A DNA stretch of 64,000 nt from Escherichia phage p000v. The position numbers and the translations under genes are program-made. The notes beneath the pieces are model-generated. The model was given only the letters and a program-made list of their open reading frames with translations. It was not told the DNA's origin and did no database searches. Where the stretch lies: the sequence record NC_055781.1; one strand, 5' to 3'. This document shows, one piece after another, positions 3,880 to 52,355 of this stretch. Every line of letters starts with the position of its first letter. Positions within the stretch are counted from its first letter, which is position 1.

Positions 3880-3925
3880 TGTACAACCAAGGATGGTTGG
3901 AGTATAATGAATCTATCTTAACTAG
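3877..3925 (+). repeat. repeated early-promoter cassette (copy 1 of CAACCAAGGATGGTTGGAGTATAAT...CTATCTTAAC)
   Basis: Near-identical copy at 45146-45190 and a diverged copy at 45701-45730. Confidence 0.6.
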
Positions 3926-3936
3926 AGGAAAATATT

Positions 3937-4887
3937 ATGACACGTTCACATTACATTGAATACTTTGCCGGTCTTATCGCTAACGTTCATGCTCAGCGCG
4001 CTTCTGGTGCACTAGGATTTGATGTTCCACACCGAGATGTAGTAAGTGGTATTCTTCGCGATTTTGGTACATACACAGGCCAAGAAAATCATATCTGTAA
4101 AGATACTCAGAATGCATATTCTCATTCATTAGGGACACTGCTTCAATGGTTCAAACGTTCTCGTTTATTATCTTCTACTGTAGCTCGCGATAACATTAAA
4201 AACTTTATGAAACCGAGCTTTATTAAATCTGTGACATCTAAAACCGATTTGGTTGAATTCACTATTGTTAATGATGTTAAAAAGACTCATTTAGCTGATT
4301 GGTTATCTACCATTCCTGAAACTAAATTTGCTGATAAATTTGCTTGTGAATTCAATAACCAAGTGAATATGCTTTTTAAACATTCTCGTAAATTATTCAC
4401 AGGCGGCGATGATCGTACAAATAAAGTTCATGTTAAAGATTGGGTTACTGCAGTATTCAAACCAACAGGTAATGGTAACGCATCATTGTCAATTGATATT
4501 CAGGTTCCTTATTACTACTCACGTAATCTCGGCACCATGAAAGCCGAAGAAATTAATAAGCGCAACAAAACCATTCGTTCGCTGTCTTATAAACTTCGCA
4601 TGATGTTAAGAATCATGGACGTGGTAGAAATGTATGATGAAACCGAAGATAATGGTTCAATGTTATACAGTTCTCGCATTCAAATTAAGTTGAAGAACCC
4701 TAACGAGTATAAGCCTAAGCCTATTAAAGAGCCTAAAGCAGAAAAAGTTGATAACTTAAGAGAAGAACGCGAATATCTCAAATCTCGTCTGAAAGAAGTC
4801 GAAGCCCAGATTAAAGAACAGACTAAATCGTTAAAAGCTCTGAATGCGAAAGCGGATGGTTTACGAAATGCCATTGAGGTGTTATAA
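3937..4887 (+). CDS. hypothetical protein with C-terminal coiled-coil-like region
   Basis: ORF track 316 aa; RBS GAGGAAAA. Confidence 0.55.
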   Translation: MTRSHYIEYFAGLIANVHAQRASGALGFDVPHRDVVSGILRDFGTYTGQENHICKDTQNAYSHSLGTLLQWFKRSRLLSSTVARDNIKNFMKPSFIKSVTSKTDLVEFTIVNDVKKTHLADWLSTIPETKFADKFACEFNNQVNMLFKHSRKLFTGGDDRTNKVHVKDWVTAVFKPTGNGNASLSIDIQVPYYYSRNLGTMKAEEINKRNKTIRSLSYKLRMMLRIMDVVEMYDETEDNGSMLYSSRIQIKLKNPNEYKPKPIKEPKAEKVDNLREEREYLKSRLKEVEAQIKEQTKSLKALNAKADGLRNAIEVL

Positions 4888-5192
4888 TGAAACTACGTCT
4901 TTTAGAGGATATTGATATGAGCACTAATCATGGCTTGGTTAAGTTTATTGACGATAGTTCAAAGATTGAATTTGTTCAGCGAGATAAAATCCACGGTGAA
5001 GAAGAGTTCGTTCCTCCAGCATGGAACGAAATAATGAAAATGGTTGAACGACGTGAAAATGCCGCCAAATCGGCAGCAAAACATCCGTGTCCGGAATGTG
5101 GAACTATCCAAGTCCAACTGGTTAACTGGACCAGTGATAACTTGAAATTGAAATGCCGTAAATGCTTCCACAAATTTGAGAGAACATTATAA
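4887..5192 (+). CDS. small Cys4 zinc-ribbon protein
   Basis: CPECG ... CRKC pairs; start overlaps upstream stop (TAATG). Confidence 0.5.
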   Translation: MKLRLLEDIDMSTNHGLVKFIDDSSKIEFVQRDKIHGEEEFVPPAWNEIMKMVERRENAAKSAAKHPCPECGTIQVQLVNWTSDNLKLKCRKCFHKFERTL

Positions 5193-5605
5193 TGAGATAT
5201 AGCCTTCGTTGTTTTATCGCAGCTTTAGTTTTTGCCATTATTCCATTCATTTGGAACAGCCAGAATACTTACATGGAAACTAAAGTAATTCCTGTGGAGG
5301 TAGTGGAATTAATCTCAGGCCAATCTACAGGAAAATATTCTAAATTAGAATTTATTGCAGTCTATAAAGATGAGCAAGGACGAGTTTTTGACAGGCGTGT
5401 ATCACCTTCGTTTTATACGCTTCTGAATAAAGGTGATACGATAGCTATAGAAATTCGTGAGATGGATATCAAACAAACTACTAAAGATAACTTGATTTGG
5501 TTCTTTGGTACAGTGTTGTTGGTTTCTATCTGTATCACAGGTTTTATTACATGTATTGTATTTGGCATTGCATATTTAATCGATGAAAGGAAAAATAATG
5601 TTTAA
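5192..5605 (+). CDS. membrane protein (two predicted TM segments)
   Basis: Hydrophobic N- and C-terminal segments; ATGA-type start overlap. Confidence 0.5.
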   Translation: MRYSLRCFIAALVFAIIPFIWNSQNTYMETKVIPVEVVELISGQSTGKYSKLEFIAVYKDEQGRVFDRRVSPSFYTLLNKGDTIAIEIREMDIKQTTKDNLIWFFGTVLLVSICITGFITCIVFGIAYLIDERKNNV

Positions 5606-5861
5606 AGTGTACGGGTATGACTCTACTATTCATAAATGCATTTATTGTGATAATGCGAAACGATTGCTGACTGTTAAGAAACAGCCGTTCGAATTCATTA
5701 ATGTTATGCCAGAAAAAGGTGTTTTTGATGATGAGAAAATTGCTGAGCTTCTGGTTAAGCTTGGACGTGAATCACAAGTCGGATTGACTATGCCTCAAGT
5801 GTTTGCTCCTGACGGAAGTCACATTGGTGGATTTGACCAACTACGAGAATATTTTAAATGA
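5598..5861 (+). CDS. nrdC: glutaredoxin-like thioredoxin NrdC
   Basis: MFKVYGYDS..KCIYCDNAK..PQVFAPDGSHIGGFDQLREYFK matches recalled T4 NrdC almost residue for residue. Confidence 0.85.
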   Translation: MFKVYGYDSTIHKCIYCDNAKRLLTVKKQPFEFINVMPEKGVFDDEKIAELLVKLGRESQVGLTMPQVFAPDGSHIGGFDQLREYFK

Positions 5862-6154
5862 GTATTGATTTAACTTTCCCTGGCCCTTATGACCAGGGTG
5901 AATTAGAAGCTTTATTATATCAAGAAATGTGCTCTCGTGCCAAGAACGATATTCAGTATGCTATCGATAATCCATGGGGCGAATTTCGAGTAATGATGGG
6001 TAATCGAATCATCGGTGTCCAATGGCGATTCGTTGGCCTTGAGCCTGAGGACTATGAAGAAAACGAGCACGGTGACTGGATTCCTGTTGGTGAATATCAC
6101 TGGGAATACGGTGGTCCTGATTTTGAAGTCTCTTGTTCATGGGTAGAACAATAA
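5858..6154 (+). CDS. hypothetical protein
   Basis: ORF track 98 aa; coupled start. Confidence 0.5.
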   Translation: MSIDLTFPGPYDQGELEALLYQEMCSRAKNDIQYAIDNPWGEFRVMMGNRIIGVQWRFVGLEPEDYEENEHGDWIPVGEYHWEYGGPDFEVSCSWVEQ

Positions 6155-6172
6155 CCTGCGAGAAAATTTTAA

Positions 6173-6529
6173 ATGACATATTCATTAAATCTTAAAGATT
6201 TCCAGGATGTATACGAAGTTTGTGCCAACGAACTTGGTCCTGATGCTCCAACTATTATTGAAGTTTTAAATGTGCTCCCTTCATCATTAGCTTACGAAGC
6301 CAAATCATGGGGATGGAACGACACTGTCGTTCGTGATGACCTTTACGTCCTGATGAACGACATGATGGTTAAAAAGGCAGAACCGGTTGCACCAATGGTT
6401 ACCATTACCATTGAAGAATATAATCGCCTGCAAGCCATTGAAGAGCTTCTGTGGAACATTGAATGTGACCTGCCGTCAGGGCTAGAATCCTGGATTGATT
6501 ATGAAGAGCTCAATAAACTCCGGGGTTAA
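6173..6529 (+). CDS. hypothetical protein
   Basis: ORF track 118 aa. Confidence 0.5.
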   Translation: MTYSLNLKDFQDVYEVCANELGPDAPTIIEVLNVLPSSLAYEAKSWGWNDTVVRDDLYVLMNDMMVKKAEPVAPMVTITIEEYNRLQAIEELLWNIECDLPSGLESWIDYEELNKLRG

Positions 6530-6829
6530 ACCGTGGTATTCTGCTCGATGGGAGACTGTCGAGCCAGACGTCGAAACAGTTTACAACGACGAAGAAACGT
6601 GTTATGATGAACCTACAGTAAACGATATGATTGATTTGGAAATGGGAAGAGATTATTATGCAAGTTAAATTATTGTACCGTTTATTAAAAAGTGGCAAGC
6701 ATGATTGGTATTTGCTTATTAAAACCGATCCGAATTTTTTCTCTGGACAACCATTTACAGTTCGTCCTACTAAACGTCAGCTTCGCAAAGCTAAACGTTC
6801 TCATCGTAACTTTTATAGAGAATATTGAT

Positions 6830-7243
6830 ATGAATATTTCTGAAACTCGCGGTAAATGGTTCAAGATTGTTAAAGAAGACGAAGAACTACAAGTCAAGTT
6901 TCCTGAATTAAAGAAAGGAACAATCATCAAGGTAATTGGTACTACTACCGAAGATGGTTATGGCGACCATGGCATTATCGAAGTGATGTTGAACACAGGT
7001 GAGAAACTTTGCATCTATGACCGTGATACTTCTCTTTGGTGCTTCTGGGAATCCCATTCAATAGATGAACTCGAAGAAATTGACCAAGTAGTTTGTGATG
7101 GTGGACTTGGTGAATTCGAAGGTGAACGTATTTCTTATGCTTTAGCTAAATTAGCTGGTCAAGAAAATAATGACGGTTATGAAGGTAATCTGATGCAAGC
7201 CGCAGCGGAATACATTGAATATTTAGAAAGACGTTTAAGTTAA
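6830..7243 (+). CDS. hypothetical acidic protein
   Basis: Internal ATG at 6830 directly after upstream stop (TGATATG); 5' part of tracked ORF overlaps another ORF. Confidence 0.5.
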   Translation: MNISETRGKWFKIVKEDEELQVKFPELKKGTIIKVIGTTTEDGYGDHGIIEVMLNTGEKLCIYDRDTSLWCFWESHSIDELEEIDQVVCDGGLGEFEGERISYALAKLAGQENNDGYEGNLMQAAAEYIEYLERRLS

Positions 7244-7278: not shown

Positions 7279-7752
7279 ATGTTATTATCTGGCAAATTAT
7301 ACAAAGAAGAAAAACAAAAATTTTATGATGCACAGAACGGTAAGTGTCCTATTTGCCACCGTGAATTAGACCCTGATGTTCAAGGTAACCATCTTGACCA
7401 CGACCACGAGTTAAACGGGCCAAAAGCCGGTAGAGTTCGTGGATTACTCTGTAATCTGTGCAACGCAGCAGAAGGCCAAATGAAGCATAAGTTCAACCGT
7501 TCTGGTCTTAAAGGTCAAAACGTTGATTACCTCGAATGGCTTGAAGCTCTTCTTGCTTATTTGAAACAAGATTATTCTGATAATAATATCCATCCTAATT
7601 TTGTTCCAGACAAAACTAAAGAGTTCTCAAGACTAGGTAAAGAGGAAATGATGGCTGAGATGCTTCAAAGAGGATTTGAATATAATGAATCTGATACTAA
7701 AACACAATTAATAGCTTCATTCAAAAAGCAGCTTAGAAAGAGTTTAAAATGA
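7279..7752 (+). CDS. 49: endonuclease VII (Holliday junction resolvase)
   Basis: 157 aa; near-identical to recalled T4 gp49 (MLL.GKLYKEEKQKFYDAQNGKC.IC..EL.PDVQ.NHLDHDHELNGPKAG). Confidence 0.9.
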   Translation: MLLSGKLYKEEKQKFYDAQNGKCPICHRELDPDVQGNHLDHDHELNGPKAGRVRGLLCNLCNAAEGQMKHKFNRSGLKGQNVDYLEWLEALLAYLKQDYSDNNIHPNFVPDKTKEFSRLGKEEMMAEMLQRGFEYNESDTKTQLIASFKKQLRKSLK

Positions 7753-9566
7753 AAATTGAAAAAGAAATTGAAGGATTAATTTATAAAACTAATAAAGATC
7801 TTTTGAACGAGAATGCTAATAAAGATTCTCGTGTTTTTCCAACTCAACGGGACCTTATGGCTGGTATTGTGTCTAAGCACATTGCCAAAAATATGGTCCC
7901 GTCTTTTATTATGAATGCGCATGAAAGTGGAATTATCCACATGCATGATATTGATTATTCTCCTGCTCTTCCGTTTACTAATTGTTGTTTAGTCGATTTA
8001 AAGGGGATGCTTGAGAACGGATTTAAATTAGGCAATGCTCAAATTGAAACGCCTAAATCGATTGGTGTTGCTACTGCAATTATGGCACAAATTACTGCAC
8101 AAGTTGCTTCACATCAGTATGGCGGAACTACATTTGCAAATGTCGATAAAGTTCTTTCTCCTTATGTTAAACGTACATACGCTAAACATGTTGAAGATGC
8201 AGAAAAATGGCAAATCGCTGATGCGTTGAATTATGCTCAATCTAAAACAGAAAAAGACGTATACGATGCATTCCAAGCTTATGAATATGAAGTAAATACT
8301 CTCTTTAGTTCAAACGGACAAACGCCTTTTGTAACAATTACATTTGGTACGGGAACCGATTGGACTGAACGAATGATTCAGAAGGCAATTCTGAAAAATC
8401 GGATTAAAGGTCTTGGTCGTGATGGGATAACTCCTATTTTTCCTAAACTTGTTATGTTTGTTGAAGAAGGTGTTAATCTTTATAAAGATGATCCAAACTA
8501 TGATATTAAACAACTTGCGTTAGAATGTGCAAGCAAAAGAATGTATCCTGACATTATTTCGGTTAAGAATAATAAAGCTATTACCGGTTCTTCAGTTCCT
8601 GTTTCTCCAATGGGTTGCCGTAGTTTCTTGAGCGTATGGAAAGATTCAACTGGAAATGAAATTCTTGACGGTCGTAATAATCTCGGTGTTGTAACACTGA
8701 ATCTTCCTCGCATCGCATTAGATTCTTATATTGGAACACAGTTCAATGAACAGAAATTTGTTGAATTATTCAATGAACGAATGGATTTATGTTTTGAAGC
8801 TTTGATGTGTAGAATTAGTTCCTTAAAAGGAGTTAAAGCGACTGTTGCTCCTATTCTTTACCAAGAAGGTGCATTCGGGGTTCGTCTTAAACCTGATGAC
8901 GATATAATTGAGTTATTTAAAAACGGTAGAAGTTCAGTGTCTTTAGGATACATCGGTATTCATGAATTGAATATTCTTGTTGGTCGTGATATTGGACAAG
9001 AAATTTTAACTAAAATGAATGCTCATCTTAAACAGTGGACTGAAAGAACTGGTTTTGCTTTTAGTTTGTATTCTACTCCTGCTGAAAACCTTTGTTATCG
9101 CTTCTGTAAACTCGATACAGAAAAATATGGAAGTGTAAAAGATGTTACCGATAAAGGCTGGTACACTAACAGTTTCCACGTTTCAGTAGAAGAAAATATT
9201 ACTCCGTTTGAAAAGATTTCTCGTGAAGCGCCATATCATTTCATTGCGACAGGTGGTCACATTTCTTATGTTGAACTTCCAGATATGAAAAACAATTTAA
9301 AGGGACTTGAGGCCGTCTGGGATTATGCTGCACAACATTTAGATTATTTTGGTGTTAATATGCCAGTGGATAAATGTTTTACATGTGGAAGTACCCATGA
9401 AATGACTCCTACTGAAAACGGATTTGTTTGTTCAGTTTGCGGAGAAACTGATCCTAAAAAGATGAACACCATAAGAAGAACATGCGGTTATTTGGGAAAT
9501 CCGAACGAACGCGGATTTAATCTCGGTAAAAATAAAGAAATCATGCATAGGGTTAAACACCAATGA
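7749..9566 (+). CDS. nrdD: anaerobic ribonucleoside-triphosphate reductase NrdD
   Basis: 605 aa; C-terminal glycyl-radical motif RRTCGYLG and Cys cluster; uninterrupted reading frame. Confidence 0.92.
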   Translation: MKIEKEIEGLIYKTNKDLLNENANKDSRVFPTQRDLMAGIVSKHIAKNMVPSFIMNAHESGIIHMHDIDYSPALPFTNCCLVDLKGMLENGFKLGNAQIETPKSIGVATAIMAQITAQVASHQYGGTTFANVDKVLSPYVKRTYAKHVEDAEKWQIADALNYAQSKTEKDVYDAFQAYEYEVNTLFSSNGQTPFVTITFGTGTDWTERMIQKAILKNRIKGLGRDGITPIFPKLVMFVEEGVNLYKDDPNYDIKQLALECASKRMYPDIISVKNNKAITGSSVPVSPMGCRSFLSVWKDSTGNEILDGRNNLGVVTLNLPRIALDSYIGTQFNEQKFVELFNERMDLCFEALMCRISSLKGVKATVAPILYQEGAFGVRLKPDDDIIELFKNGRSSVSLGYIGIHELNILVGRDIGQEILTKMNAHLKQWTERTGFAFSLYSTPAENLCYRFCKLDTEKYGSVKDVTDKGWYTNSFHVSVEENITPFEKISREAPYHFIATGGHISYVELPDMKNNLKGLEAVWDYAAQHLDYFGVNMPVDKCFTCGSTHEMTPTENGFVCSVCGETDPKKMNTIRRTCGYLGNPNERGFNLGKNKEIMHRVKHQ

Positions 9567-24395: not shown

Positions 24396-25031
24396 ATGAA
24401 AACTACACCAATCACTATCGCTATTGACGCAATCGTAAAACAAGCTTCATCTCTTGCCACTATGGCTAAAGTAATTAGTCAAAACTCTGCCCGATATAAT
24501 GCTATTCTTGAAACTCTTCGTCGCCCTGGACTGAGTAATTATGAAAGCCGAGTAATTATTACAGGTGTTGGTAAGAACGCTAATATCGCAACTAAAGCTT
24601 CCGAGACTTTTGCTTCACTAGGTATTCCTAGCATGTATTTGAACACCGGGCATTATTCTCATGGCGACGCAGGATTTATTGCACCTAATGATGTATTAGT
24701 TCACATCAGTCGTTCTGGTAAGACTGAAGAAATGATAGGTGTTGCTAAACATCTTCGTATGATTCGTCCTCAGGTTAAACAGATTCTGTTACATTGTAAC
24801 CCTGACATTCCGCAAGAATACGAAGCTCTTTTTGATTATACGTTCTGTACAGGCATCGCGGTAGAGGTTGATGAGAATTCTCTGGCTCCGACCATGTCCA
24901 CTACATTGTTGTTAGCGCTTATCGATACGTTTGCTATCAACCTTTCGTCTGAACGTGGATTTACCTCTAATGACTTCCTTAAGTTCCACCCTGGTGGTGC
25001 ACTAGGTGCCATGTTACGAGGCGAACAATGA
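24396..25031 (+). CDS. SIS-domain sugar-phosphate isomerase, KdsD/KpsF-like arabinose-5-phosphate isomerase without CBS domains
   Basis: ITGVGKNANIATKASETFASLGIPS, SHGDAGFIAPNDVLVHISRSGKTEE and HPGGALG resemble the API SIS domain. Confidence 0.8.
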   Translation: MKTTPITIAIDAIVKQASSLATMAKVISQNSARYNAILETLRRPGLSNYESRVIITGVGKNANIATKASETFASLGIPSMYLNTGHYSHGDAGFIAPNDVLVHISRSGKTEEMIGVAKHLRMIRPQVKQILLHCNPDIPQEYEALFDYTFCTGIAVEVDENSLAPTMSTTLLLALIDTFAINLSSERGFTSNDFLKFHPGGALGAMLRGEQ

Positions 25032-25212: not shown

Positions 25213-26898
25213 ATGAAAAAAGCTGTTATTCTTGGTGCTGGACTGGCAACTCGTTTGTATCCAATAACGCACCATATTCCTAAGGTGCTTGTTAACTATA
25301 AACAAGACACTATTCTGAGCAATTTGTATACAATTTATTCTGACCTTGGCGCAGATGAAATTATTGTAGTAGTTCATTCAAAATTTGCTGAAACTGTTCG
25401 AGCTTATTGCGAGCAAGAAGGGTTCAATGTGACTATTCGTACAGTTGATGAAGCGTATGGTTCTGCTTATGCTCTTGCTAAATTATACAAAGATTTAGAT
25501 GGCCATAACGTAATTGTTAACTGGTGTGATATTATTCCTGACTTTGGTTCATGGTCTTGGAATGTTAACGCAATCTATGTTAAGGGTGATGAATGTCGAT
25601 ATAATTTCGATGGTGAAAATATCACTAACGTAGGTTCAACAGGTGGTAATGTTGTAGGAATTTATCAGTTCAAAGACTGGGAATTCTACATGGGTTCTAC
25701 TGATGAGGAAATTCACGAATACTGCAAAGGTCGTGATTTCGTAGAATTCCTTTACGGCAGTGCATTCAATAAATCAGAGCTTATGAATCTAATTGATTTA
25801 GGTGATATGCCTAAACTTGAAAAGGCTCATGAAGTTCGTGAACTGAATCGTAGTTTTAATGCAGTTGAAATTGGCGAAGAAACTGTAACTAAATTCGCGT
25901 TAACCGAACAAGGTCGAGCTCTTCAAAAAGATGAGATTTCATGGTATTTGAAAGTGAAATCAGATTCAGTTCCTCAGTTAGTTTCGGTAAATGAAAATAA
26001 TTTTGAAATGGAACGTATTAAAGGTAAGCCGGCATTTGAATATATTAAATCCAAATCAAGTCTTGCTCGTCCACAAATTGTTGATGCAATTTTAGATGCA
26101 CTGAAATTCAGCACGGACACTTATTTTGTAAGTCCTGAAACTGTTCGCCGTGATTTCACTAAAGAGTTCTATACGAAAGTTATTGATCGTTGTGAAAGCA
26201 TTCAGCCATTGATTGATTCATTTGGTAAAATCACACGTGTGAACTACACTAAGATTGGACGTCTGAAGCCAATGTTGAAACAAGCTTTAGAACATCTTAT
26301 TCGTTATCATAACCGTTCTCAGGGACAGTACTCTGTTATTCATGGTGACCCGAACTTCAGTAATACTATGATTACCGATAACGGCGAAGTCAAGTTTATC
26401 GACCCTCGTGGATATTTTGGTGAAACCAAGATTTACGGGCCAAAATTGTATGATGAAGCTAAAGTGCTTTATGCTGTTTCAGGTTATGATGAATTCAATG
26501 CTAATCCGACCTGGGGTCAGTTTACTATTGATGAAACAACTTGTAATGTGACTATTAACATCAATCCATTAGTTTACAAATATGGAAAGATGAGTTCGTT
26601 TAACGAGTATCATCATTTGGCAGTAGCAATTATCTGGATTGCATTAGGTGGTTATTTCAAGAATAATCCACTTAAAGCGGTTGCCGCATATTATAAAGGT
26701 ATGGAACTTCTGACTAAGCAATTACGTAACATGGGCCGTGTACTTCAAGACGGCTCTATTAGTTATGACGTAGCAGAACCTGTAACGGCTACTCTGATTA
26801 CAAAAAATCCTGGTAAATGGGTACTAACTGATAAAGAAACTGGTGTTTCCTATCGTCCAATCGGCGGCGATATCACTCATCAATGGGAACGAATCTAA
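25213..26898 (+). CDS. bifunctional sugar-1-phosphate nucleotidyltransferase / APH-like sugar kinase
   Basis: N-terminus ILGAGLATRLYPITHHIPKVLV is an NTP-transferase signature; C-terminal HGDPNFSNTMITDNGEVKFIDPRGYFG is an APH/choline-kinase catalytic motif. Confidence 0.8.
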   Translation: MKKAVILGAGLATRLYPITHHIPKVLVNYKQDTILSNLYTIYSDLGADEIIVVVHSKFAETVRAYCEQEGFNVTIRTVDEAYGSAYALAKLYKDLDGHNVIVNWCDIIPDFGSWSWNVNAIYVKGDECRYNFDGENITNVGSTGGNVVGIYQFKDWEFYMGSTDEEIHEYCKGRDFVEFLYGSAFNKSELMNLIDLGDMPKLEKAHEVRELNRSFNAVEIGEETVTKFALTEQGRALQKDEISWYLKVKSDSVPQLVSVNENNFEMERIKGKPAFEYIKSKSSLARPQIVDAILDALKFSTDTYFVSPETVRRDFTKEFYTKVIDRCESIQPLIDSFGKITRVNYTKIGRLKPMLKQALEHLIRYHNRSQGQYSVIHGDPNFSNTMITDNGEVKFIDPRGYFGETKIYGPKLYDEAKVLYAVSGYDEFNANPTWGQFTIDETTCNVTININPLVYKYGKMSSFNEYHHLAVAIIWIALGGYFKNNPLKAVAAYYKGMELLTKQLRNMGRVLQDGSISYDVAEPVTATLITKNPGKWVLTDKETGVSYRPIGGDITHQWERI

Positions 26899-27284
26899 TG
26901 CACCGTGTAGAAAACATGCTTAATCTTTGTTTTGATGTCGATGATTGTATAACAGAGTGGAATAACAATCGTGATTACGTGAACTTCAAACCAGACGTCG
27001 AAATGGTGTCTGCCATTAATGCCCTGTATGATGCAGGGCATACCATAACGCTTTACACTGCCCGTGGTATGAAGTCGGTAGGTCCTGGTCGTATAGCAAT
27101 TGACATTCTCCCAAGTCTGATTCAGAACTTGGAAAACATTGGTTTGAAGTACCATAATTTGCTAACACATAAACCAGTATATGATTGGATTATCGACGAC
27201 AAAGCTATGCGTCCTGACGAATTCAAAGCTCTTATGAATAAAGGCGAATTCGAAACATTTAAATCATATAAACCAAATCTATAA
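26883..27284 (+). CDS. HAD-superfamily phosphatase (small, capless)
   Basis: Motif I FDVDDCIT, motif II TLYTAR, motif III/IV K..(n)..IIDDKA; alternative ATG at 26898. Confidence 0.7.
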   Translation: MGTNLMHRVENMLNLCFDVDDCITEWNNNRDYVNFKPDVEMVSAINALYDAGHTITLYTARGMKSVGPGRIAIDILPSLIQNLENIGLKYHNLLTHKPVYDWIIDDKAMRPDEFKALMNKGEFETFKSYKPNL

Positions 27285-27341: not shown

Positions 27342-28502
27342 ATGAATACTTTTAAAATCGGAACGAATTTTGATTTAGCTCTTCTTGATAAAATCGTAGA
27401 GCTCAATAAAACCTATCCTAATAGCTTGATAAACGAAGTATATGGCTCTACAAGAGAAATGGCTTTTGTAGCAGCCAGACCTGATTTTAGGCTTCCTGAC
27501 GTTGACAAAAAGATGTTAGAAGACTACGTTAAACGTTGTAACGAATTAGGTATTTGCTTTAACTATACACTCAACACGATAAATCCTGGTTCAAAAAGAG
27601 AACTAGTTGAGTGGAAGAAGAAAGCTATTCAGGATTATGTTCAGTATCTTTGGTCAATAGGCGTATGGCGTATTACTATCGCTAACCCTGTTGTTATGGA
27701 AATTGTTCGTGAAGTCAATAAAGATATTGAGATTGAAGTTTCAACAATTCTACATGTCGATGCGGTAACTCAAATCAAATACTTACATGACCAATATAAC
27801 ATCAAAAAGGTCTGTTGCGGAATTCATAAGAACCGTTCAGTTTCTTTCCTGAAGCGTGCAGCAGAGTTTTGCAATAAGAACAATATAATATTTGAAGTTC
27901 TTGTAAATGAGTTCTGTTCTAATGCTGGTAAAGGGTATACAACACATTGTAGTTATCGTGACTCTTGCTATATTTTCCATAGTACTGATGTTACCGCTGA
28001 TGATGCTAAATCCTTAAATGGATATCCTATGCAGCACTGTATTAAAGCTCGTGATACAGACCCATTTAACTGGTTGAGAACTCGTTTTGTTCGTCCTCAA
28101 GATTTGAAACTTTATAATGATATTGGTATCACTCAATTCAAAGTTTCAGGACGTACAGGTAGCACAGACTACATTTTGAAAGTTCTTGAAGCATACGCTT
28201 CTGAAAAGTTTGAAGGTAATTTGTTAGAACTGTGGAAGCCTTTAGAGACTATTTTCACTCTTGAAAATGAGACTGAGTTTTCACATACAGTAAATATTGA
28301 AACCTCTTTGTTAGATGGCTTTTTAGAAAAAAGGTGGTTCAGACATCCAGATTTTGATTGTGCTAATGAAATCTGTGGGTCAACGTGTACATATTGTGAA
28401 AGGTATTATAAACGTCAATTATCTAAAAACGGGTTAGCAGAAAACTCCATATCTATTATTGATATAACTAACTCTGATGACGCTTTGAGGTACCCGGAAT
28501 GA
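27342..28502 (+). CDS. Cys-rich protein of unknown function (possible metal or Fe-S enzyme)
   Basis: 386 aa; Cys clusters CC, C-x10-C-x6-C and C-x4-C-x3-C-x2-C; no recognisable family by eye. Confidence 0.6.
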   Translation: MNTFKIGTNFDLALLDKIVELNKTYPNSLINEVYGSTREMAFVAARPDFRLPDVDKKMLEDYVKRCNELGICFNYTLNTINPGSKRELVEWKKKAIQDYVQYLWSIGVWRITIANPVVMEIVREVNKDIEIEVSTILHVDAVTQIKYLHDQYNIKKVCCGIHKNRSVSFLKRAAEFCNKNNIIFEVLVNEFCSNAGKGYTTHCSYRDSCYIFHSTDVTADDAKSLNGYPMQHCIKARDTDPFNWLRTRFVRPQDLKLYNDIGITQFKVSGRTGSTDYILKVLEAYASEKFEGNLLELWKPLETIFTLENETEFSHTVNIETSLLDGFLEKRWFRHPDFDCANEICGSTCTYCERYYKRQLSKNGLAENSISIIDITNSDDALRYPE

Positions 28503-28738
28503 TTTCTAGAAAAAGTTTTAATTATAAACTTAACGAAGAGATTTTGACTATGAAACTGAACACTAACGAACAAATTCTTAAAAAGGCCCTTATGGGCCTG
28601 TTTGAAACCAAAGCGGCTAAAGTGATTAAAGAACCTGTTCAATTGGAATACTACGCTGATGCATTTCTTCATAGTGTTCTTGGAAGTATCGATGCTGAAG
28701 CTTTACGTTATATCAACATTGTCAAGAAATTCAAATAA
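28499..28738 (+). CDS. hypothetical protein
   Basis: ATGA overlap with upstream stop. Confidence 0.4.
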   Translation: MISRKSFNYKLNEEILTMKLNTNEQILKKALMGLFETKAAKVIKEPVQLEYYADAFLHSVLGSIDAEALRYINIVKKFK

Positions 28739-28780: not shown

Positions 28781-29497
28781 ATGGGAAAACATAACACAAT
28801 GAAATATATCAAAGCCGCAGATTTTCAAACCGCATTTAAAGCAGTCAATCGTGAAATTTTAGAAAACCCGGAATTCGTAACTGATTCTCGTATTGGACGT
28901 TGTAATGAAATTGGGTCTATGACAGTAGTTGTTGACACTCCATCATCATTCAAAATGACCGACCCACGTATTAACCGCATCTCTTATGAATATGCCGAAG
29001 ACTTCTGGAAGTTTATGATTTCTGGTGGTACCAACGCAGAAGAAGCGTTTAAGGCATATCCTAATGTCGCTAAATTTATTTCTAAACCAAAATCAGATGT
29101 TTTGCCGGCGAACTTCAACACTTTCTATGGTCCTCGCATTGCGGCCCAATTACCAACTCTTCTAAAAGAACTTAAAGAGAAGCCTAACTCCCGAAGAGTT
29201 GTGTTCCAAATTCTAGAAAGTTCTGATCAGGCTTTGCTTGATTCGGACGAAACACTTGAATATCCATGTACTGACTCAGTAACTTATTATATTCGTGATG
29301 GTAAGCTTTATACCCACTGTCATATGCGTTCTCAGAACTGTGCTGTTGTTATGCAGTTGGATTTTTATCTCCAAGGAAAATTACTTCATTATATCGCTAA
29401 CGAATGCGGTGTAGAAGTTGGTGATTATACTCATACCATGGTAAGTGCCCATGTGTTTGAACGTGATTTTGATTATGTTAAAGGATTCCTTGACTAA
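28781..29497 (+). CDS. 42: thymidylate-synthase-fold pyrimidine hydroxymethylase (dCMP hydroxymethylase gp42)
   Basis: TS-like motifs NSRRVV, catalytic Cys in EYPCTDS, HMRSQN; synteny with T4 gene 42. Confidence 0.75.
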   Translation: MGKHNTMKYIKAADFQTAFKAVNREILENPEFVTDSRIGRCNEIGSMTVVVDTPSSFKMTDPRINRISYEYAEDFWKFMISGGTNAEEAFKAYPNVAKFISKPKSDVLPANFNTFYGPRIAAQLPTLLKELKEKPNSRRVVFQILESSDQALLDSDETLEYPCTDSVTYYIRDGKLYTHCHMRSQNCAVVMQLDFYLQGKLLHYIANECGVEVGDYTHTMVSAHVFERDFDYVKGFLD

Positions 29498-30396
29498 TGG
29501 CTATTTTCCGCGTACCAATCTTGAGTATGCGGTCTTATGAAACTGGACAGTATGCTATCCTTAAGGATGGCAACTTCCAACTTCATTTGCACCGTGCTAA
29601 TCCGGGTGATGTGATTACATATCCACGTAATGCATCTGATATTAAAGAATGCGAACGTCTTTTCCCAGAATTTAAGTTTGTTCCATTATGGTATAAAGAT
29701 AACGCGTATAACACTCGTAAATATTTCTGGACTGAAAATGAATTTGTGGTTGATTCATTAATTGATTATTATGATTGTGATTTTCTAATCACAGATATCA
29801 CTGGTTATGGTGGCGCTTTTGATGTGGAATTCAATTTCAATATCACTGCAGACCCTAATAAACCACGTTTTTATATTGATGAATTCTTAAAAACCGACAT
29901 GTTGTCTGTTAATCGTTCACTTCAAACTACTGTGTTGAATGAACGTCAAAAAGAAGTGCTGGTTAACGCAGGTGCAGATGGTAATAAGATTATCGTAACG
30001 CAGAAAGTTATACGTCCTTCCATCATGCAGCGTCTTGTAGGTGATTTGGCTCCTATTCATCTAGATGGTATTTTTCATCCATTTCGAATTAGTGACCCAT
30101 GTTATCGTTTTGAACAAGTGGTTGAATGTGCAATTCAATTAGGTCAACCGCTTTATATAACCGATCCAAATAATAGCTTCGACAGAAATAAGTATCCTGA
30201 AGAAGCGCTGATTCGAATTTTTAAACCAACTAAAACTGAGTACTATCAAATTCTTAAAGGACGTCCGAAAATTCAATATTTCGAAAATCCTGAAGAAGTA
30301 TTCCATCCAGGTCTTGGTGAGTTCATCTACTTTAATGCTTTAATTTCTTCGCCGTATAATATACCTAAATACGAAGATGTCGTAATCGAGGAATAA
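29497..30396 (+). CDS. hypothetical protein occupying the T4 b-gt position
   Basis: 299 aa; coupled start TAATG; no recognisable motif. Confidence 0.55.
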   Translation: MAIFRVPILSMRSYETGQYAILKDGNFQLHLHRANPGDVITYPRNASDIKECERLFPEFKFVPLWYKDNAYNTRKYFWTENEFVVDSLIDYYDCDFLITDITGYGGAFDVEFNFNITADPNKPRFYIDEFLKTDMLSVNRSLQTTVLNERQKEVLVNAGADGNKIIVTQKVIRPSIMQRLVGDLAPIHLDGIFHPFRISDPCYRFEQVVECAIQLGQPLYITDPNNSFDRNKYPEEALIRIFKPTKTEYYQILKGRPKIQYFENPEEVFHPGLGEFIYFNALISSPYNIPKYEDVVIEE

Positions 30397-30397
30397 A

Positions 30398-30946
30398 ATG
30401 GCTAAAATTATTTTAGTAGATGGCCCGGATAATGCCGGTAAAACAACTTTCATTAATGACATAATGGAAATTAGTGAAAGATATGTAAAGATTGATTTCC
30501 CTAAACGAACAGTTGATGGACGTTTCGATGTTAAGTCTCGAAATGAAGTTGGCTGTTTCGAAACGATGTTGAATTATTTAGACCCTACTAAGATTTATCT
30601 GTTAGACCGTGGATATATTAGTAACTGGGTTTATGGACGTATTCGACAAGATGCGGACTCGATTCTTGACGTTTATGAACAGGACTATGTTCGTCTTTGC
30701 CAAAACCATGATGTGTTCACAATTATTTTAACACGTAACGAAATGACTGAAAGTTTTGAAGACGACCTTATTACTTTGTCTTCATTCGGTTTTAATACAG
30801 TCATTTCACATTTTGAAGAGTTTGCAATTCATAACAAAATCCAAACATATCAATTACTTAATCATGATGGTGCTAACAAAGTTATAGGATTTAATGCAAG
30901 CGAACGTAATGGTTTGATTACAGAAATCATCAAATGGGCTCGTTAA
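30398..30946 (+). CDS. P-loop kinase-like protein
   Basis: Walker A GPDNAGKTT and LLDRGY motif reminiscent of nucleoside/nucleotide kinases. Confidence 0.55.
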   Translation: MAKIILVDGPDNAGKTTFINDIMEISERYVKIDFPKRTVDGRFDVKSRNEVGCFETMLNYLDPTKIYLLDRGYISNWVYGRIRQDADSILDVYEQDYVRLCQNHDVFTIILTRNEMTESFEDDLITLSSFGFNTVISHFEEFAIHNKIQTYQLLNHDGANKVIGFNASERNGLITEIIKWAR

Positions 30947-31045: not shown

Positions 31046-32218
31046 ATGTCTGATTTAAAATCTCGTCTGATTAAAGCTTCTACTTCTAAAATGACTGCAG
31101 ACTTGACTAAGTCTAAGCTGTTTAATAATCGTGATGAAGTCCCTACTCGTATTCCGATGTTGAATATTGCACTAGGTGGTGCTCTGAATGCAGGATTGCA
31201 ATCAGGCTTGACTATTTTTGCTGCACCTTCTAAACACTTTAAAACGCTGTTTGGACTAACTATGGTTGCAGCGTATATGAAGAAATATAAAGATGCAATC
31301 TGTTTGTTCTATGACTCAGAATTTGGTGCTTCAGAATCTTATTTTCGTTCAATGGGTGTTGATTTAGACCGTGTAGTTCATACACCAATTCAGTCCGTCG
31401 AACAACTTAAAGTTGATATGACTAATCAGCTTGACGCGATTGAACGCGGTGATAAAGTTATTATCTTTATCGATTCAATCGGTAATACTGCATCTAAGAA
31501 AGAAACCGAAGATGCATTGAATGAGAAAGTCGTAGGTGATATGTCTCGTGCTAAGGCACTTAAATCTCTGTTCCGTATTGTGACCCCGTATCTGACTATT
31601 AAAGATATTCCGTGTGTTGCAATCAACCATACAGCAATGGAAATCGGCGGACTATATCCTAAAGAGATTATGGGTGGTGGTACAGGTATTCTTTATTCTG
31701 CCAACACGGTATTTTTTATCTCTAAACGTCAGGTTAAAGAAGGTACAGAATTGACCGGTTATGACTTCACGTTGAAAGCAGAAAAATCTCGTACAGTTAA
31801 AGAGAAATCTACTTTCCCGATCACGGTTAATTTCGATGGTGGTATCGACCCATTCAGTGGCTTGCTAGAAATGGCAACTGAAATCGGTTTTGTGGTTAAG
31901 CCTAAAGCTGGTTGGTATGCTCGTGAATTCCTTGACGAAGAAACAGGTGAAATGATTCGTGAAGAAAAATCATGGCGTGCTAAAGCTACTGATTGTGTAG
32001 AATTCTGGGGACCTTTGTTTAAACACAAACCTTTCCGTGATGCGATTGAAATGAAATATAAGCTAGGCGCTATCTCGTCTATTAAAGAAGTTGATGACGC
32101 TGTTAACGACCTTATTAATTGCAAAGCAACAACTAAAGTTCCGGTTAAAGCTTCTGATGCTCCGTCTGCAGCAGATATAGAAAACGACCTTGACGAAATG
32201 GAAGATTTCGATGAATAA
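31046..32218 (+). CDS. uvsX: RecA-like recombinase UvsX
   Basis: MSDLKSRLIKASTSK...GPSKHFKT...KSWRAKATDCVEFWGPLFKH matches recalled T4 UvsX. Confidence 0.95.
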   Translation: MSDLKSRLIKASTSKMTADLTKSKLFNNRDEVPTRIPMLNIALGGALNAGLQSGLTIFAAPSKHFKTLFGLTMVAAYMKKYKDAICLFYDSEFGASESYFRSMGVDLDRVVHTPIQSVEQLKVDMTNQLDAIERGDKVIIFIDSIGNTASKKETEDALNEKVVGDMSRAKALKSLFRIVTPYLTIKDIPCVAINHTAMEIGGLYPKEIMGGGTGILYSANTVFFISKRQVKEGTELTGYDFTLKAEKSRTVKEKSTFPITVNFDGGIDPFSGLLEMATEIGFVVKPKAGWYAREFLDEETGEMIREEKSWRAKATDCVEFWGPLFKHKPFRDAIEMKYKLGAISSIKEVDDAVNDLINCKATTKVPVKASDAPSAADIENDLDEMEDFDE

Positions 32219-51254: not shown

Positions 51255-52355
51255 ATGAAAGTTATGTTTATCCCATCTCGCGCAGTCCCATTTAACCCAG
51301 AACGTGTACAAGGTGGTCTTGAAGCAGTACATTTAAATGTATTGAAATATCTTGTGTCCATCGGTGCTGATATTGATTATATCGGCTTTGATAATGACAC
51401 GTTTGGTGACTGGAAGGTTAATCATCATCCTGTTGGTCATCTGACTAAATTCAGTCTAGGTATGAGTTATACTATGGCTCGTAAGATTGTTGAACTAGCC
51501 GGCATCCATGAATACGATTTTGTTGTTACTATGGAACCGACTAAACTAACCGTTCAGGCAATTAAAGACGCAGGTCTCTCTAAAGTTCATAAGAATTTTA
51601 TGGCAACACCATTTGAACCGGTATCTCGTGGCATTGTTCAAATTTGGGACCAGACTATTCAAATTCATAAGAATGGTGGTAAGAGTTATGCTCCTACTAA
51701 AGCCTTCCGTGAATTTGAACGCAAATATTGTTATATGACTTCAGGTCTGACTGACAAAATTGATTATGATTATTGGCGAGCAAATCCGTTGTTTGAAGCC
51801 GAAGATTATCCGGTTATTTGTTTGACTGAAAAGCCAGAAGTTCTTCCGGCGACGGATCTGATTATTAGTGCACAACGTTATGACACTAAAATGCGTCGTA
51901 CTGATGTTGCTCTTGAAGCGATTAAAGCACTAGGCGAAAATGGTGCAGGATACTGTCCTAGTAAATGGGCACCACCAGCTAAATATCCTGTTATTATTGA
52001 TGCTCCACACAGCGAAATCATGGAACGTCTTAAAACAGCTAAAGCACTTATCAATACGTGTCCTGACACGGGTACGGTAGAGAATAGTTCTATTGAAGCC
52101 ATCTCTAAAGGTGTCCCTGTGATTCAGTTAGTTTTTAAGGATTATCCGCACGCGACATTCGAATATGACCCAGATACTGTGCGTGTAGAAATTGATTCCT
52201 CTACTCCTAAGAAAGAAGTAGTTGCGCTTTACACAAAAGCTGTATTAGAATTCACTGACACATACGAAGCTCGAGTTAAACGTGCTGAAGCAGTATGGAA
52301 GAAGTATAACCGAGATGCAGTTGTTGCGATGTGGGATAAAATCTTCACAGCGTAA
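51255..52355 (+). CDS. GT-B fold glycosyltransferase (candidate DNA hmC pentosyl/arabinosyl transferase)
   Basis: N-terminus MKVMFIPSRAV...GGLE and C-terminal ...GTVENSSIEAISKGVPVIQ resemble GT4-type GT-B motifs; 366 aa; lies between gene 39 and rIIA. Confidence 0.75.
   Translation: MKVMFIPSRAVPFNPERVQGGLEAVHLNVLKYLVSIGADIDYIGFDNDTFGDWKVNHHPVGHLTKFSLGMSYTMARKIVELAGIHEYDFVVTMEPTKLTVQAIKDAGLSKVHKNFMATPFEPVSRGIVQIWDQTIQIHKNGGKSYAPTKAFREFERKYCYMTSGLTDKIDYDYWRANPLFEAEDYPVICLTEKPEVLPATDLIISAQRYDTKMRRTDVALEAIKALGENGAGYCPSKWAPPAKYPVIIDAPHSEIMERLKTAKALINTCPDTGTVENSSIEAISKGVPVIQLVFKDYPHATFEYDPDTVRVEIDSSTPKKEVVALYTKAVLEFTDTYEARVKRAEAVWKKYNRDAVVAMWDKIFTA

Follow-up and report, generated by a model that had tools for sequence, protein, structure and literature searches.

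Arabinosyl-5-hydroxycytosine, a DNA hypermodification solved recently, is relevant to phage therapy and phage engineering; it gives RB69-type phages protection against restriction enzymes, Brig1 and type I CRISPR-Cas. The virion DNA of these phages contains alpha-Araf-O5-dC and beta-Araf-(1,3)-alpha-Araf-O5-dC, not hydroxymethylcytosine (hmC), and arabinosylated 5-hydroxy-dC has been demonstrated chemically in RB69, NP, HY126 and others (Lee et al., NAR 2026, PMC13326640). A ThyA homologue puts the hydroxyl on C5 of dCMP, and UDP-D-arabinofuranose (UDP-Araf) is made from ribulose-5-P by upstream genes (PMC13326640, and He et al. as cited there); the AfhE-type pyrophosphorylase activity is reported for HY126 (He et al., cited in PMC13326640). 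The 5-hydroxy-dCMP synthase function was demonstrated for RB69 gp48, and RB69 gp159, a dNMP kinase of the T4 gp1 type, phosphorylates 5-hydroxy-dCMP and raises 5hodC incorporation in E. coli (PMC13326640). Addition of a third arabinose was demonstrated on DNA: the gp3-type glycosyltransferases (GTs) gp76 and gp77 of phage DLP3 add it to already arabinosylated RB69 DNA (PMC13326640).

RB69 gp46:47 and DLP3 gp79 are listed as the putative "arabinosyltransferase 1", and RB69 gp45, DLP3 gp78 and RL38J1 gp214 as "nucleotide kinase", the latter in Table 1 of that paper only and with no pathway step given (PMC13326640). The DLP3 GTs purified singly, the gp79 orthologue included, did not arabinosylate 5hoC-DNA with UDP-Araf or UDP-Arap, and Thanatos is reported to be mono-arabinosylated with one GT only, which is syntenic (PMC13326640). 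The 300-aa Thanatos orthologue, TH1_063, when purified, converted UTP and xylose-1-P to UDP-xylose; DNA, dCMP and dCTP were tried as acceptors, and transfer to them was not detected (Brandt et al., AEM 2025, PMC12838424).

The window analysed here, the whole 64,000-nucleotide stretch of Escherichia phage p000v DNA, is of Mosigvirus origin and is 99.4% identical to phage p000y across the region. It encodes the same pair of proteins, 98-99% identical to RB69 gp46:47 and gp45, in the gene order of HY126 (Table), whose GenBank record gives gene names for none of the cluster. The 299-aa protein is 98.3% identical to RB69 gp46:47 and shows no substantive difference from it or from DLP3 gp79; the ORF, split in the RB69 reference record by a sequencing error, is uninterrupted here. 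The 182-aa protein is the same gene as RB69 gp45, DLP3 gp78 and RL38J1 gp214, in the same order behind the GT and here part of a strictly conserved triad; its Mosigvirus homologues are 97-100% identical, and in RB69 the gp45 homologue likewise follows the GT. Both genes had thus already been described as putative transferase and nucleotide-kinase partners of the 5-hydroxycytosine-making enzyme, and the word unknown, used in an earlier note made from the sequence of this window, does not hold for the proteins.

Table. Modification genes of the p000v window and genes next to them
Feature	Coordinates	Strand	Counterpart or basis
Arabinose-5-phosphate isomerase (API; SIS domain)	24396..25031	+	RB69 gp55 homologue; first step of UDP-Araf supply; Pfam SIS E 1e-9; RB69 annotation; PMC13326640
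Bifunctional Ara5P 1-kinase / UDP-Araf pyrophosphorylase, 561 aa, AfhE type	25213..26898	+	RB69 gp52:53; Pfam; NCBIfam; PMC13326640 citing He et al.
HAD-type phosphatase, 133 aa, AfhF type	26883..27284	+	RB69 gp51; PHROG 1238; NCBIfam; PMC13326640
Peptidase_U32-family protein, 386 aa	27342..28502	+	RB69 gp50; Pfam PF01136
ThyA-family 5-hydroxy-dCMP synthase, 238 aa (first gene of the triad)	28781..29497	+	RB69 gp48; PDB identity and signature residues
GT-B fold glycosyltransferase (predicted), 299 aa	29497..30396	+	Orthologue of RB69 gp46:47, DLP3 gp79, HY126 XAN60474
Thymidylate-kinase-fold P-loop kinase (predicted), 182 aa	30398..30946	+	Orthologue of RB69 gp45, DLP3 gp78, HY126 XAN60473
uvsX (downstream flank of the 182-aa kinase gene)	31046-32218		
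Second glycosyltransferase, 366 aa, RB69 gp3 type; proposed beta-arabinosyltransferase 2	51255..52355	+	Identity to RB69 gp3

The ThyA-like, 299-aa and 182-aa genes are translationally coupled, the last two as the earlier note had said. The stop codon of the first overlaps the start of the second (TAATG at 29495-29499), the stop of the second and the ATG of the third lie 1 base apart (TAAAATG), and purine runs resembling Shine-Dalgarno sequences precede the starts of both the 299-aa and the 182-aa ORFs. Between 24500 and 31200, a scan for promoters and terminators gave fewer promoter-like sites than in shuffled sequence and no terminator within the triad; it adds nothing to the coupling that is visible in the sequence. 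The two ORFs did not arise by chance but are real genes: their homologues occur in ~347 phage records and in many metagenomic contigs, and their family alignments contain invariant columns (34 in the 299-aa family and 37 in the 182-aa family).

At the equivalent place T4 has the order 42 / b-gt / segA / uvsX. The pair does occupy the T4 b-gt place before uvsX, but the gene upstream of it, formerly taken for gene 42, is judged from its residues to be a 5-hydroxy-dCMP synthase, with no functional gene 42 (dCMP hydroxymethylase) there. Relative to E. coli ThyA it carries L143E, D169N and N177D, whereas T4 gp42 retains D169, and it shares ~97% identity with the HY126 enzyme whose structure is solved (PDB 9iqc/9ir2/9iqu). 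The base to be expected is therefore not hmdC, as had been assumed, but the 5-hydroxy-dC carrying alpha-D-Araf and then beta-D-Araf that is described in PMC13326640 and that the D169N signature matches; from the near identity to RB69-type phages we infer that it is present in p000v virion DNA. The genes for UDP-Araf supply (API, kinase/pyrophosphorylase and HAD phosphatase) share a cluster with the triad, in the same order as in RB69 and HY126. The 561-aa protein shows Pfam matches to NTP_transferase (PF00483) in its N-terminal part and to an APH-like domain in its C-terminal part, with NCBIfam matches to sugar-1-P nucleotidyltransferases under threshold, and the 133-aa HAD-type protein has an NCBIfam match, also under threshold, to a capsule-biosynthesis phosphatase. 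The proposal that both genes belong to an alternative modification system replacing T4 glucosylation is borne out in outline by the RB69 gp46:47/gp45 orthology, the supply genes and the D169N hydroxylase.

New here is the conservation of this triad. Hydroxylase, GT and kinase are contiguous, mostly with overlapping stop and start codons, in eight divergent lineages: Mosigvirus, Thanatos-2, DLP3, Dhakavirus IME08, Klebsiella phage PWKp16, a 355-kb jumbo contig and two further contigs. The last two are contigs with no arabinose genes in their sampled flanks, and the triad is regarded as independent of those genes. D169N is present in every ThyA homologue associated with the triad, and the 299-aa family is found in every lineage that has the D169N hydroxylase. 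Phage records number 347 for the GT, 346 for the kinase and only 210 for the gp3-type GT, these last from Escherichia, Shigella and Acinetobacter phages. The gp3-type GT is confined to Mosigvirus and the phages of Acinetobacter; no match to it was found in the phages of Klebsiella, Serratia, Yersinia and Proteus, or in the Dhakavirus and Thanatos phages, that have the complete triad of hydroxylase, 299-aa GT and kinase. This comparison frames two questions: i) which enzyme adds the first sugar, and at what acceptor level; and ii) why a second, thymidylate-kinase-like (Tmk-like) kinase is kept beside gp1.

The 299-aa and 182-aa genes would be genes 2 and 3 of a core module of the arabinosyl-5-hydroxycytosine pathway in which three genes are coupled, an explanation to which, with the roles proposed for each, we assign a probability of roughly 0.6. 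The module would run from the 5-hydroxy-dCMP synthase through the GT-B glycosyltransferase to the thymidylate-kinase-fold kinase. The 299-aa protein would be the initiating transferase, using UDP-Araf to attach the first Araf, in alpha linkage, to the cytosine 5-hydroxyl, and the gp3-type GT would add the second sugar after it. The 182-aa protein would be an active ATP-dependent dNMP kinase that phosphorylates 5-hydroxy-dCMP, its arabinoside or both to the diphosphate level, for use in the replication pool. Conventionally the first sugar would be attached after replication; it may instead be added while the acceptor is still a mononucleotide.

The 299-aa protein lacks recognisable sequence motifs, as had been noted: neither it nor any of 38 relatives gave a match in Pfam, with no GT family even at E<=1, in NCBIfam, or in the PDB by phmmer or profile search. 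Structure prediction gives a GT-B model, two Rossmann-like beta/alpha/beta domains with a cleft between them. In the family H270-P271-G272 is invariant, position 275 is E or D, and R197 and K246 are conserved; a donor motif of the EX7E type was looked for, and E267-x7-E275 occurs, with position 267 variable across the family. T4 b-gt is a positional analogue that shares genomic position alone with the 299-aa family (hhalign probability 0.35%); the profile gave a probability below 1% with each of T4 b-gt, T4 a-gt and the gp3-type GT, and no sequence relationship to the T4 enzymes is detectable. These are about 50-100 residues longer and transfer glucose to a hydroxymethyl group, whereas the predicted acceptor of the 299-aa protein is the ring hydroxyl of 5-hydroxycytosine and its sugar arabinofuranose. 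The 299-aa family would be a sequence-orphan GT-B family working on a nucleobase ring hydroxyl.

Since the Serratia and Thanatos phages with reported arabinosylated 5hoC give no gp3-type match, the 299-aa family is the universal transferase candidate. The suggestion of a second transferase thus survives as to the enzyme class, which the predicted fold supports, and not as to the rank: its occurrence in every D169N-hydroxylase lineage makes the 299-aa protein most likely the first (core) transferase. Evidence counter to this role comes from the inactivity of DLP3 gp79 in vitro, the activity of TH1_063, the epimerases found by Foldseek (see below) and the lack of a GT sequence family.

In the 182-aa protein the Walker A sequence GPDNAGKTT (residues 9-17) and the DRGY motif (70-73) reported before are both present. 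The model has the thymidylate kinase/NMP-kinase fold with the P-loop GxxxxGK[ST], and the remote-homology and structure-prediction route suggested for the pair thus yielded a predicted fold for each protein; both models agree with the putative assignments in Table 1 of PMC13326640, where the RB69 gp45 family gives the same thymidylate-kinase structural matches. The acceptor-site motifs D11, F34-P35-K36-R37 and D70-R71-G72-Y73 are, except for R37, invariant or nearly so, and hhalign aligned residues 3-40 with residues 7-48 of human TMPK (probability 93%). The P-loop Asp would be the counterpart of the TMPK residue that touches the 3'-OH, and the arginines of FPKR and DRGY the counterparts of those gripping the acceptor phosphate. 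Compared with thymidylate kinases (PF02223, TIGR00041; vaccinia 2v54, human TMPK), the protein is about 25-30 residues shorter, lacks a helix from the segment that joins FPKR to DRGY and has Asn at the P-loop position where type I enzymes have Arg and, in the predicted LID region, an invariant acidic F-x-D-D-L-I unlike theirs. Pfam did not report PF02223 (Tmk) for it; among its relatives, 12 of 23 match that family below the 27-bit cut-off (best E 2e-4), and PDB sequence searches returned nothing beyond P-loop matches. The protein is probably a dNMP kinase for a modified deoxycytidylate, in a role likened to that of T4 gp1, through which modified dCMP enters the dNTP pool of the phage. That the 182-aa protein strictly accompanies the D169N dCMP hydroxylase points to a derivative of cytidylate, rather than dTMP, as the substrate.

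Glycosylation before replication is a rather unlikely version of events. The 299-aa GT would arabinosylate 5-hydroxy-dCMP, the Tmk-like kinase would be dedicated to the bulky arabinosyl-5-hydroxy-dCMP, beyond gp1, and a polymerase would insert the glycosylated dCTP, with sugars 2 and 3 added on DNA. The host Nth and Nei act on bare 5-hydroxycytosine in DNA, so that keeping it out would be an advantage; if glycosylation came first, this base-excision-repair substrate would never be in phage DNA. To our knowledge, all phage DNA glycosylations that have been characterised take place after replication, which speaks against such a route, and it would be the first of its kind in DNA hypermodification. 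GT and kinase are inseparable in the eight lineages, with near-equal record counts and usually overlapping ORFs, which is in its favour; however, gene order is not specific to a hand-off from GT to kinase, because in Dhakavirus and Marfavirus the kinase lies upstream of the hydroxylase and not behind the GT (kinase-hydroxylase-GT in Dhakavirus IME08). No GT-kinase fusion was found among the homologues listed for either family. Because gp159 already phosphorylates 5-hydroxy-dCMP, the Tmk-like kinase is dispensable for that reaction in the heterologous host, which counts against the kinase role proposed above, and has no assigned step; with such an activity in a T4-type gp1, the sugar could be added at the nucleotide level. 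The inactivity of the orthologue on 5hoC-DNA also fits, although negative in vitro data are weak as evidence, and the authors of PMC13326640 cannot tell mononucleotide from post-replication first arabinosylation. The demonstration of third-arabinose addition on DNA points the other way. Net charge, considered as a sign of a DNA or a small-molecule acceptor, was dropped: the 299-aa protein (pI 5.1) is acidic throughout its family, and T4 a-gt is acidic too (pI 6.1).

It is improbable that the kinase stands outside the modification chemistry, whether as a plain thymidylate kinase that raises dTTP supply, as a sugar kinase, or as a DNA kinase like the 5-hmdU DNA kinase. The public annotation is thymidylate kinase, in line with the predicted fold, and distant relatives occur as fusions with an HhH-GPD DNA-glycosylase-like domain, encoded within a cluster of D169N-ThyA, FMN-reductase and API, which hints at events at the DNA level. 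The protein nevertheless falls under every curated Tmk threshold (15.9 bits with TIGR00041 against a cut-off of 83.25), and its distribution follows the D169N hydroxylase and the 299-aa GT, not T4-like phages generally. T4-type phages already make dTDP with gp1, and on chemical grounds no phosphorylated intermediate is required for the glycosidic ether on 5hoC. Of the kinase on a sugar or a nucleotide proposed before, the nucleotide type is favoured by the Tmk-like fold and motifs; the sugar kinase was rejected as unlikely, the UDP-Araf route being complete without an extra kinase (PMC13326640) and the kinase being retained where the sampled flanks show no arabinose genes.

Quite improbable, too, is a 299-aa protein that makes a nucleotide sugar, as a UDP-pentose pyrophosphorylase or an enzyme resembling a UDP-sugar epimerase, with another protein performing the transfer to cytosine. 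The UDP-xylose formed by TH1_063, whose Thanatos-2 counterpart is 47.8% identical to the 299-aa protein and stands in the same hydroxylase-GT-kinase arrangement, would fit it, as would the Foldseek results, in which UDP-GlcNAc 2-epimerases rank level with GTs and have the lowest E-values. The reported pyrophosphorylase (PMC12838424) is, however, ill-matched to a GT-B fold and at odds with the assignment in PMC13326640; the Thanatos acceptors tested had no 5-hydroxyl, and the sugar was xylose. The fold of sugar-1-P nucleotidyltransferases differs: no NTP_transferase Pfam match (PF00483/PF12804) was found in the 299-aa protein, whose predicted fold is GT-B rather than GT-A-like, and that domain sits in the neighbouring 561-aa AfhE-type protein. 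In contigs L014 and L015 the 299-aa homologue is the only candidate transferase by the hydroxylase, with no sugar-activation genes in the sampled flanks, and Serratia, Dhakavirus and Thanatos phages lack a gp3-type match. Most improbable of all is that the first arabinose on 5hoC comes from the gp3-type GT, with the 299-aa protein acting second, since, although the HY126 gp3-type GT has a solved structure (PDB 9iqz/9ir0), suggesting a biochemically tractable enzyme, and the 299-aa orthologue was inactive on 5hoC-DNA, the phages named above keep the triad with no match to a gp3-type GT, Thanatos is reported to be mono-arabinosylated with its one syntenic GT, and DLP3 gp76 and gp77 act on DNA that is already arabinosylated.

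In the favoured reading the initiating role falls to the 299-aa protein and the second sugar to the product of 51255-52355, which is 99.2% identical to RB69 gp3; RB69 gp3 in turn matches PDB 9iqz/9ir0, "phage HY126 glycosyltransferase", with E 5e-249.

The 386-aa protein encoded between the HAD-type phosphatase and the hydroxylase is assigned to the U32 family because of its Pfam match (PF01136, E 7e-11, 42 bits against a cut-off of 22.4). Compared with E. coli UbiU, UbiV, RlhA and TrhP by pairwise BLAST and a small HMM, it gave collinear fragments, none significant. Between phage genera it is 79-89% identical.

The 299-aa gene and the 182-aa gene lie between a thymidylate synthase (ThyA)-like gene and uvsX, which begins at 31046; at the equivalent position T4 has the order 42 / b-gt / segA / uvsX. 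The ThyA-like gene ends in TAATG, the A being common to its stop codon and the 299-aa start codon. One base separates the 299-aa stop codon from the ATG of the 182-aa gene, and purine-rich, Shine-Dalgarno-like runs precede both starts. GPDNAGKTT and DRGY are residues 9-17 and 70-73 of the 182-aa protein. The window sequence thus bears out the earlier note as to both ORFs, their coordinates and coupling, the kinase motifs and the b-gt position. Segment 28781-31046 matches Escherichia phage p000y at 99.4% identity and many Mosigvirus genomes, JS09 and APCEc01 among them, at 98-99%. With RB69 ORF047c+ORF046c, split in the RB69 reference record through a sequencing error, the 299-aa protein shares 98.3% identity, and RB69 gp45 is a homologue of the 182-aa protein. 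Both genes are already known from the 2025-26 literature, as RB69 gp46:47 and gp45, and the general role in DNA modification guessed for them was correct. Exact matches recorded from Mosigvirus phages are named "hypothetical protein", "thymidylate kinase" or "RNA polymerase binding protein". The last name, which several GenBank and UniRef entries give to the 299-aa protein, has no support in sequence or fold and looks like an error carried from one annotation to the next.

In RB69 DNA, O5 of 5-hydroxy-2'-deoxycytidine directly bears either alpha-D-Araf or beta-D-Araf-(1,3)-alpha-D-Araf (Lee et al., NAR 2026, PMC13326640). 5-Hydroxy-dCMP is the product of gp48, the ThyA homologue of RB69, and D169N is the residue by which such enzymes are recognised (PMC13326640). 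Mosigvirus NP has the identical modification according to the Durham-collection paper. The ThyA homologue of the window carries L143E, D169N and N177D (T4 gp42 retains D169) and is about 97% identical to PDB entries 9iqc, 9ir2 and 9iqu; these come from phage HY126, a Mosigvirus almost identical to this one, whose genes run in the same order. The gene encodes a 5-hydroxy-dCMP synthase and is not the "gene 42" of the earlier note, whose premise of hmdC as the modified base is outdated, the base in RB69 being arabinosylated 5-hydroxy-dC. Upstream of the triad of hydroxylase, glycosyltransferase and kinase lie genes for making UDP-arabinofuranose by the route reported from RB69 and HY126 (PMC13326640).

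Features of the p000v window and of the modules compared
Genome	Feature	Coordinates	Strand	Remarks
p000v	SIS isomerase	24396-25031	+	UDP-arabinofuranose route
p000v	561-aa NTP-transferase/kinase	25213-26898	+	UDP-arabinofuranose route
p000v	HAD-type phosphatase	26883-27284	+	UDP-arabinofuranose route
p000v	386-aa Peptidase_U32 family protein (RB69 gp50)	27342-28502	+	Pfam E 7e-11
p000v	79-aa ORF (RB69 gp49)	28499-28738	+	same slot as chorismate mutase ORFs
p000v	5-hydroxy-dCMP synthase (ThyA homologue)	28781-29497	+	
p000v	299-aa ORF	29497-30396	+	ORF reading of window
p000v	182-aa ORF	30398-30946	+	ORF reading of window
p000v	second glycosyltransferase, gp3 type	51255-52355	+	99.2% identity to RB69 gp3
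Shewanella phage Thanatos-2 (L002)	299-aa orthologue	5995-6897		triad
Thanatos-2 (L002)	U32 gene	7462-8598		
Thanatos-2 (L002)	chorismate mutase ORF	8595-8852		CM_2
Klebsiella phage PWKp16 (L011)	U32 gene	3501-4661		triad
PWKp16 (L011)	chorismate mutase ORF	4658-4903		CM_2
Acinetobacter phage DLP3	triad			
Dhakavirus IME08	triad			order kinase-hydroxylase-GT
355-kb metagenomic contig	triad			kinase 28% identical
Myovirus-like metagenomic contig L014	Flavodoxin_2 - ThyA - GT - kinase	3715-6555		
Myovirus-like metagenomic contig L015	Flavodoxin_2 - ThyA - GT - kinase	3539-6588		
Contig L016	kinase/HhH-GPD fusion	5001-6074		GCA_034680565.1, JAXOUH010003483.1

The best explanation, to which we give a probability of about 0.6, is that the 299-aa protein would put the first arabinofuranose on 5-hydroxycytosine and the 182-aa protein would phosphorylate the modified deoxycytidylate as a dNMP kinase. 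No sequence method recognises the 299-aa protein or any of 38 relatives (down to 35% identity), as the earlier note's lack of recognisable motifs had it. The structure prediction it called for, built on an alignment including relatives of 35% identity, gave a confident model (pLDDT 94.8, pTM 0.89) with a GT-B fold. Comparison scores were 16.8 to BshA, 15.7 to PimA, 14.6 to the HY126 glycosyltransferase 9iqz and 13.3 to T4 alpha-glucosyltransferase; Foldseek matched MshA and also UDP-GlcNAc 2-epimerases, the fold being common to both. The model suggests a compact GT-B enzyme, in agreement with the putative "arabinosyltransferase 1" entry for gp46:47 in Table 1 of PMC13326640. Invariant positions number 34 in the family alignment, among them S10-M11-R12-S13, K23-D24-G25-N26, R33, R74, P195-F196-R197, K246 and H270-P271-G272. 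Profile comparison of the family with the window's second glycosyltransferase and the T4 enzymes found no relationship.

The new part of this analysis is comparative. Members of the 299-aa family turn up in 347 records of the phage collection and those of the kinase family in 346, and the counts per genus nearly coincide. The gp3-type glycosyltransferase occurs in only 210 (Escherichia, Shigella, Acinetobacter), confined to Mosigvirus and Acinetobacter phages, the latter having two copies. In the modules compared, the triad genes adjoin one another, the stop codon of one mostly overlapping the start codon of the next, and every ThyA homologue has D169N. The record counts and the presence across triad modules make the 299-aa family the candidate universal transferase and the gp3 type the likely accessory one, consistent with the proposal that the 299-aa type adds the first sugar (PMC13326640). 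The modules also appear to link the kinase to the 5-hydroxycytosine base rather than to arabinose metabolism. No arabinose or arabinose-activation genes occur within 5 kb either side of the module in L014 and L015, whose phages probably glycosylate 5-hydroxycytosine using a host nucleotide sugar. Their Flavodoxin_2 protein is flavin reductase-like, which fits a flavin-dependent hydroxylase.

The main rival, rather unlikely, is that 5-hydroxy-dCMP is the acceptor of the glycosyltransferase and that the kinase serves the arabinosylated nucleotide specifically. Such a scheme would account for the strict linkage of the two genes, the "spare" kinase beside the gp1 type, and the negative assays on DNA: purified DLP3 glycosyltransferases, tried singly with UDP-Araf or UDP-Arap, did not modify 5hoC-DNA, and only the pair gp76 and gp77 was active, adding a third arabinose to RB69 DNA (PMC13326640). 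First arabinosylation of the mononucleotide and after replication were indistinguishable to those authors (PMC13326640). All precedent is contrary, however, and gene order is variable. The triad analysis opens to direct test both the step taken by the kinase and the level at which the first sugar is added.

In thymidylate kinases (Tmk), the P-loop Asp touches the deoxyribose 3'-OH and the arginines of FPxR and DRY hold the acceptor phosphate. The presence in the 182-aa protein of D11, R37 and D70-R71, which we take to be their counterparts, argues for a predicted dNMP kinase. The label of bona fide thymidylate kinase was rejected: the protein is about 25-30 residues shorter than Tmk, has Asn at the position of the P-loop Arg of type I enzymes, carries, unlike Tmk, an invariant acidic F120-x-D-D-L-I in a predicted LID region of low confidence, and scores far under curated Tmk thresholds. 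Gp159, a kinase of the T4 gp1 type, phosphorylates 5-hydroxy-dCMP and raises 5hodC incorporation in E. coli, and the Tmk-like "nucleotide kinase" gets no pathway step (PMC13326640). A kinase unrelated to modified cytidylate, be it an ordinary Tmk, a sugar kinase or a DNA-level kinase, is improbable. Distant members of the kinase family (P0179, P0180, P0185; matching the family profile at E 1e-15 to 1e-19) have a C-terminal HhH-GPD fusion, resembling, as judged by eye, MBD4-type DNA glycosylase. The L016 fusion is flanked by a D169N ThyA homologue and by FMN reductase, arabinose-5-P isomerase and an AfhE-like protein; the 10 kb examined held no homologue of the 299-aa protein.

That the 299-aa protein is a nucleotide-sugar enzyme and not a transferase is very improbable. 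Brandt et al. (AEM 2025, PMC12838424) reported UDP-xylose pyrophosphorylase activity for its Thanatos orthologue TH1_063 and found none for the 561-aa protein, which carries the real nucleotidyltransferase domain. Such activity mismatches the GT-B fold and is at odds with the pyrophosphorylase domain next door; samples may have been mixed up, or a host enzyme may have contaminated the preparation. PMC13326640, citing He et al., places the activity in the 561-aa type, and the two reports conflict. Least probable of all is that the 299-aa protein is the second transferase, given the wider spread of its family. RB69 gp3 matches PDB 9iqz/9ir0, "phage HY126 glycosyltransferase"; its window counterpart, which a 737-aa ORF adjoins, has no match in Pfam or NCBIfam.

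The U32 protein upstream, labelled "sugar or heterocycle reductase" in RB69 (PMC13326640), is 79-89% identical between genera whose glycosyltransferase and kinase share only about 45%. Two U32 proteins of E. coli, RlhA and TrhP, bear the RefSeq names "23S rRNA 5-hydroxycytidine C2501 synthase" and "tRNA wobble base hydroxylation protein", respectively. Together with UbiU and UbiV, they belong to the hydroxylases that depend on prephenate and need no O2. A possible role for the phage protein is anaerobic hydroxylation of cytosine at C5, as a backup for the O2-dependent flavin enzyme. The phage protein is missing from the DLP3 cluster, and the genera listed for its matches do not include the Acinetobacter phages, which infect strict aerobes; its absence from Dhakavirus fits imperfectly. 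The Mosigvirus 79-aa ORF gave no CM_2 match, its pattern resemblance being vague and the catalytic arginines missing. In Thanatos-2 and PWKp16, the small ORF overlapping the U32 gene end is a chorismate mutase type II (32.8 and 39.5 bits; cut-off 27). Chorismate mutase supplies prephenate, the U32 hydroxylase co-substrate, which strengthens the idea.
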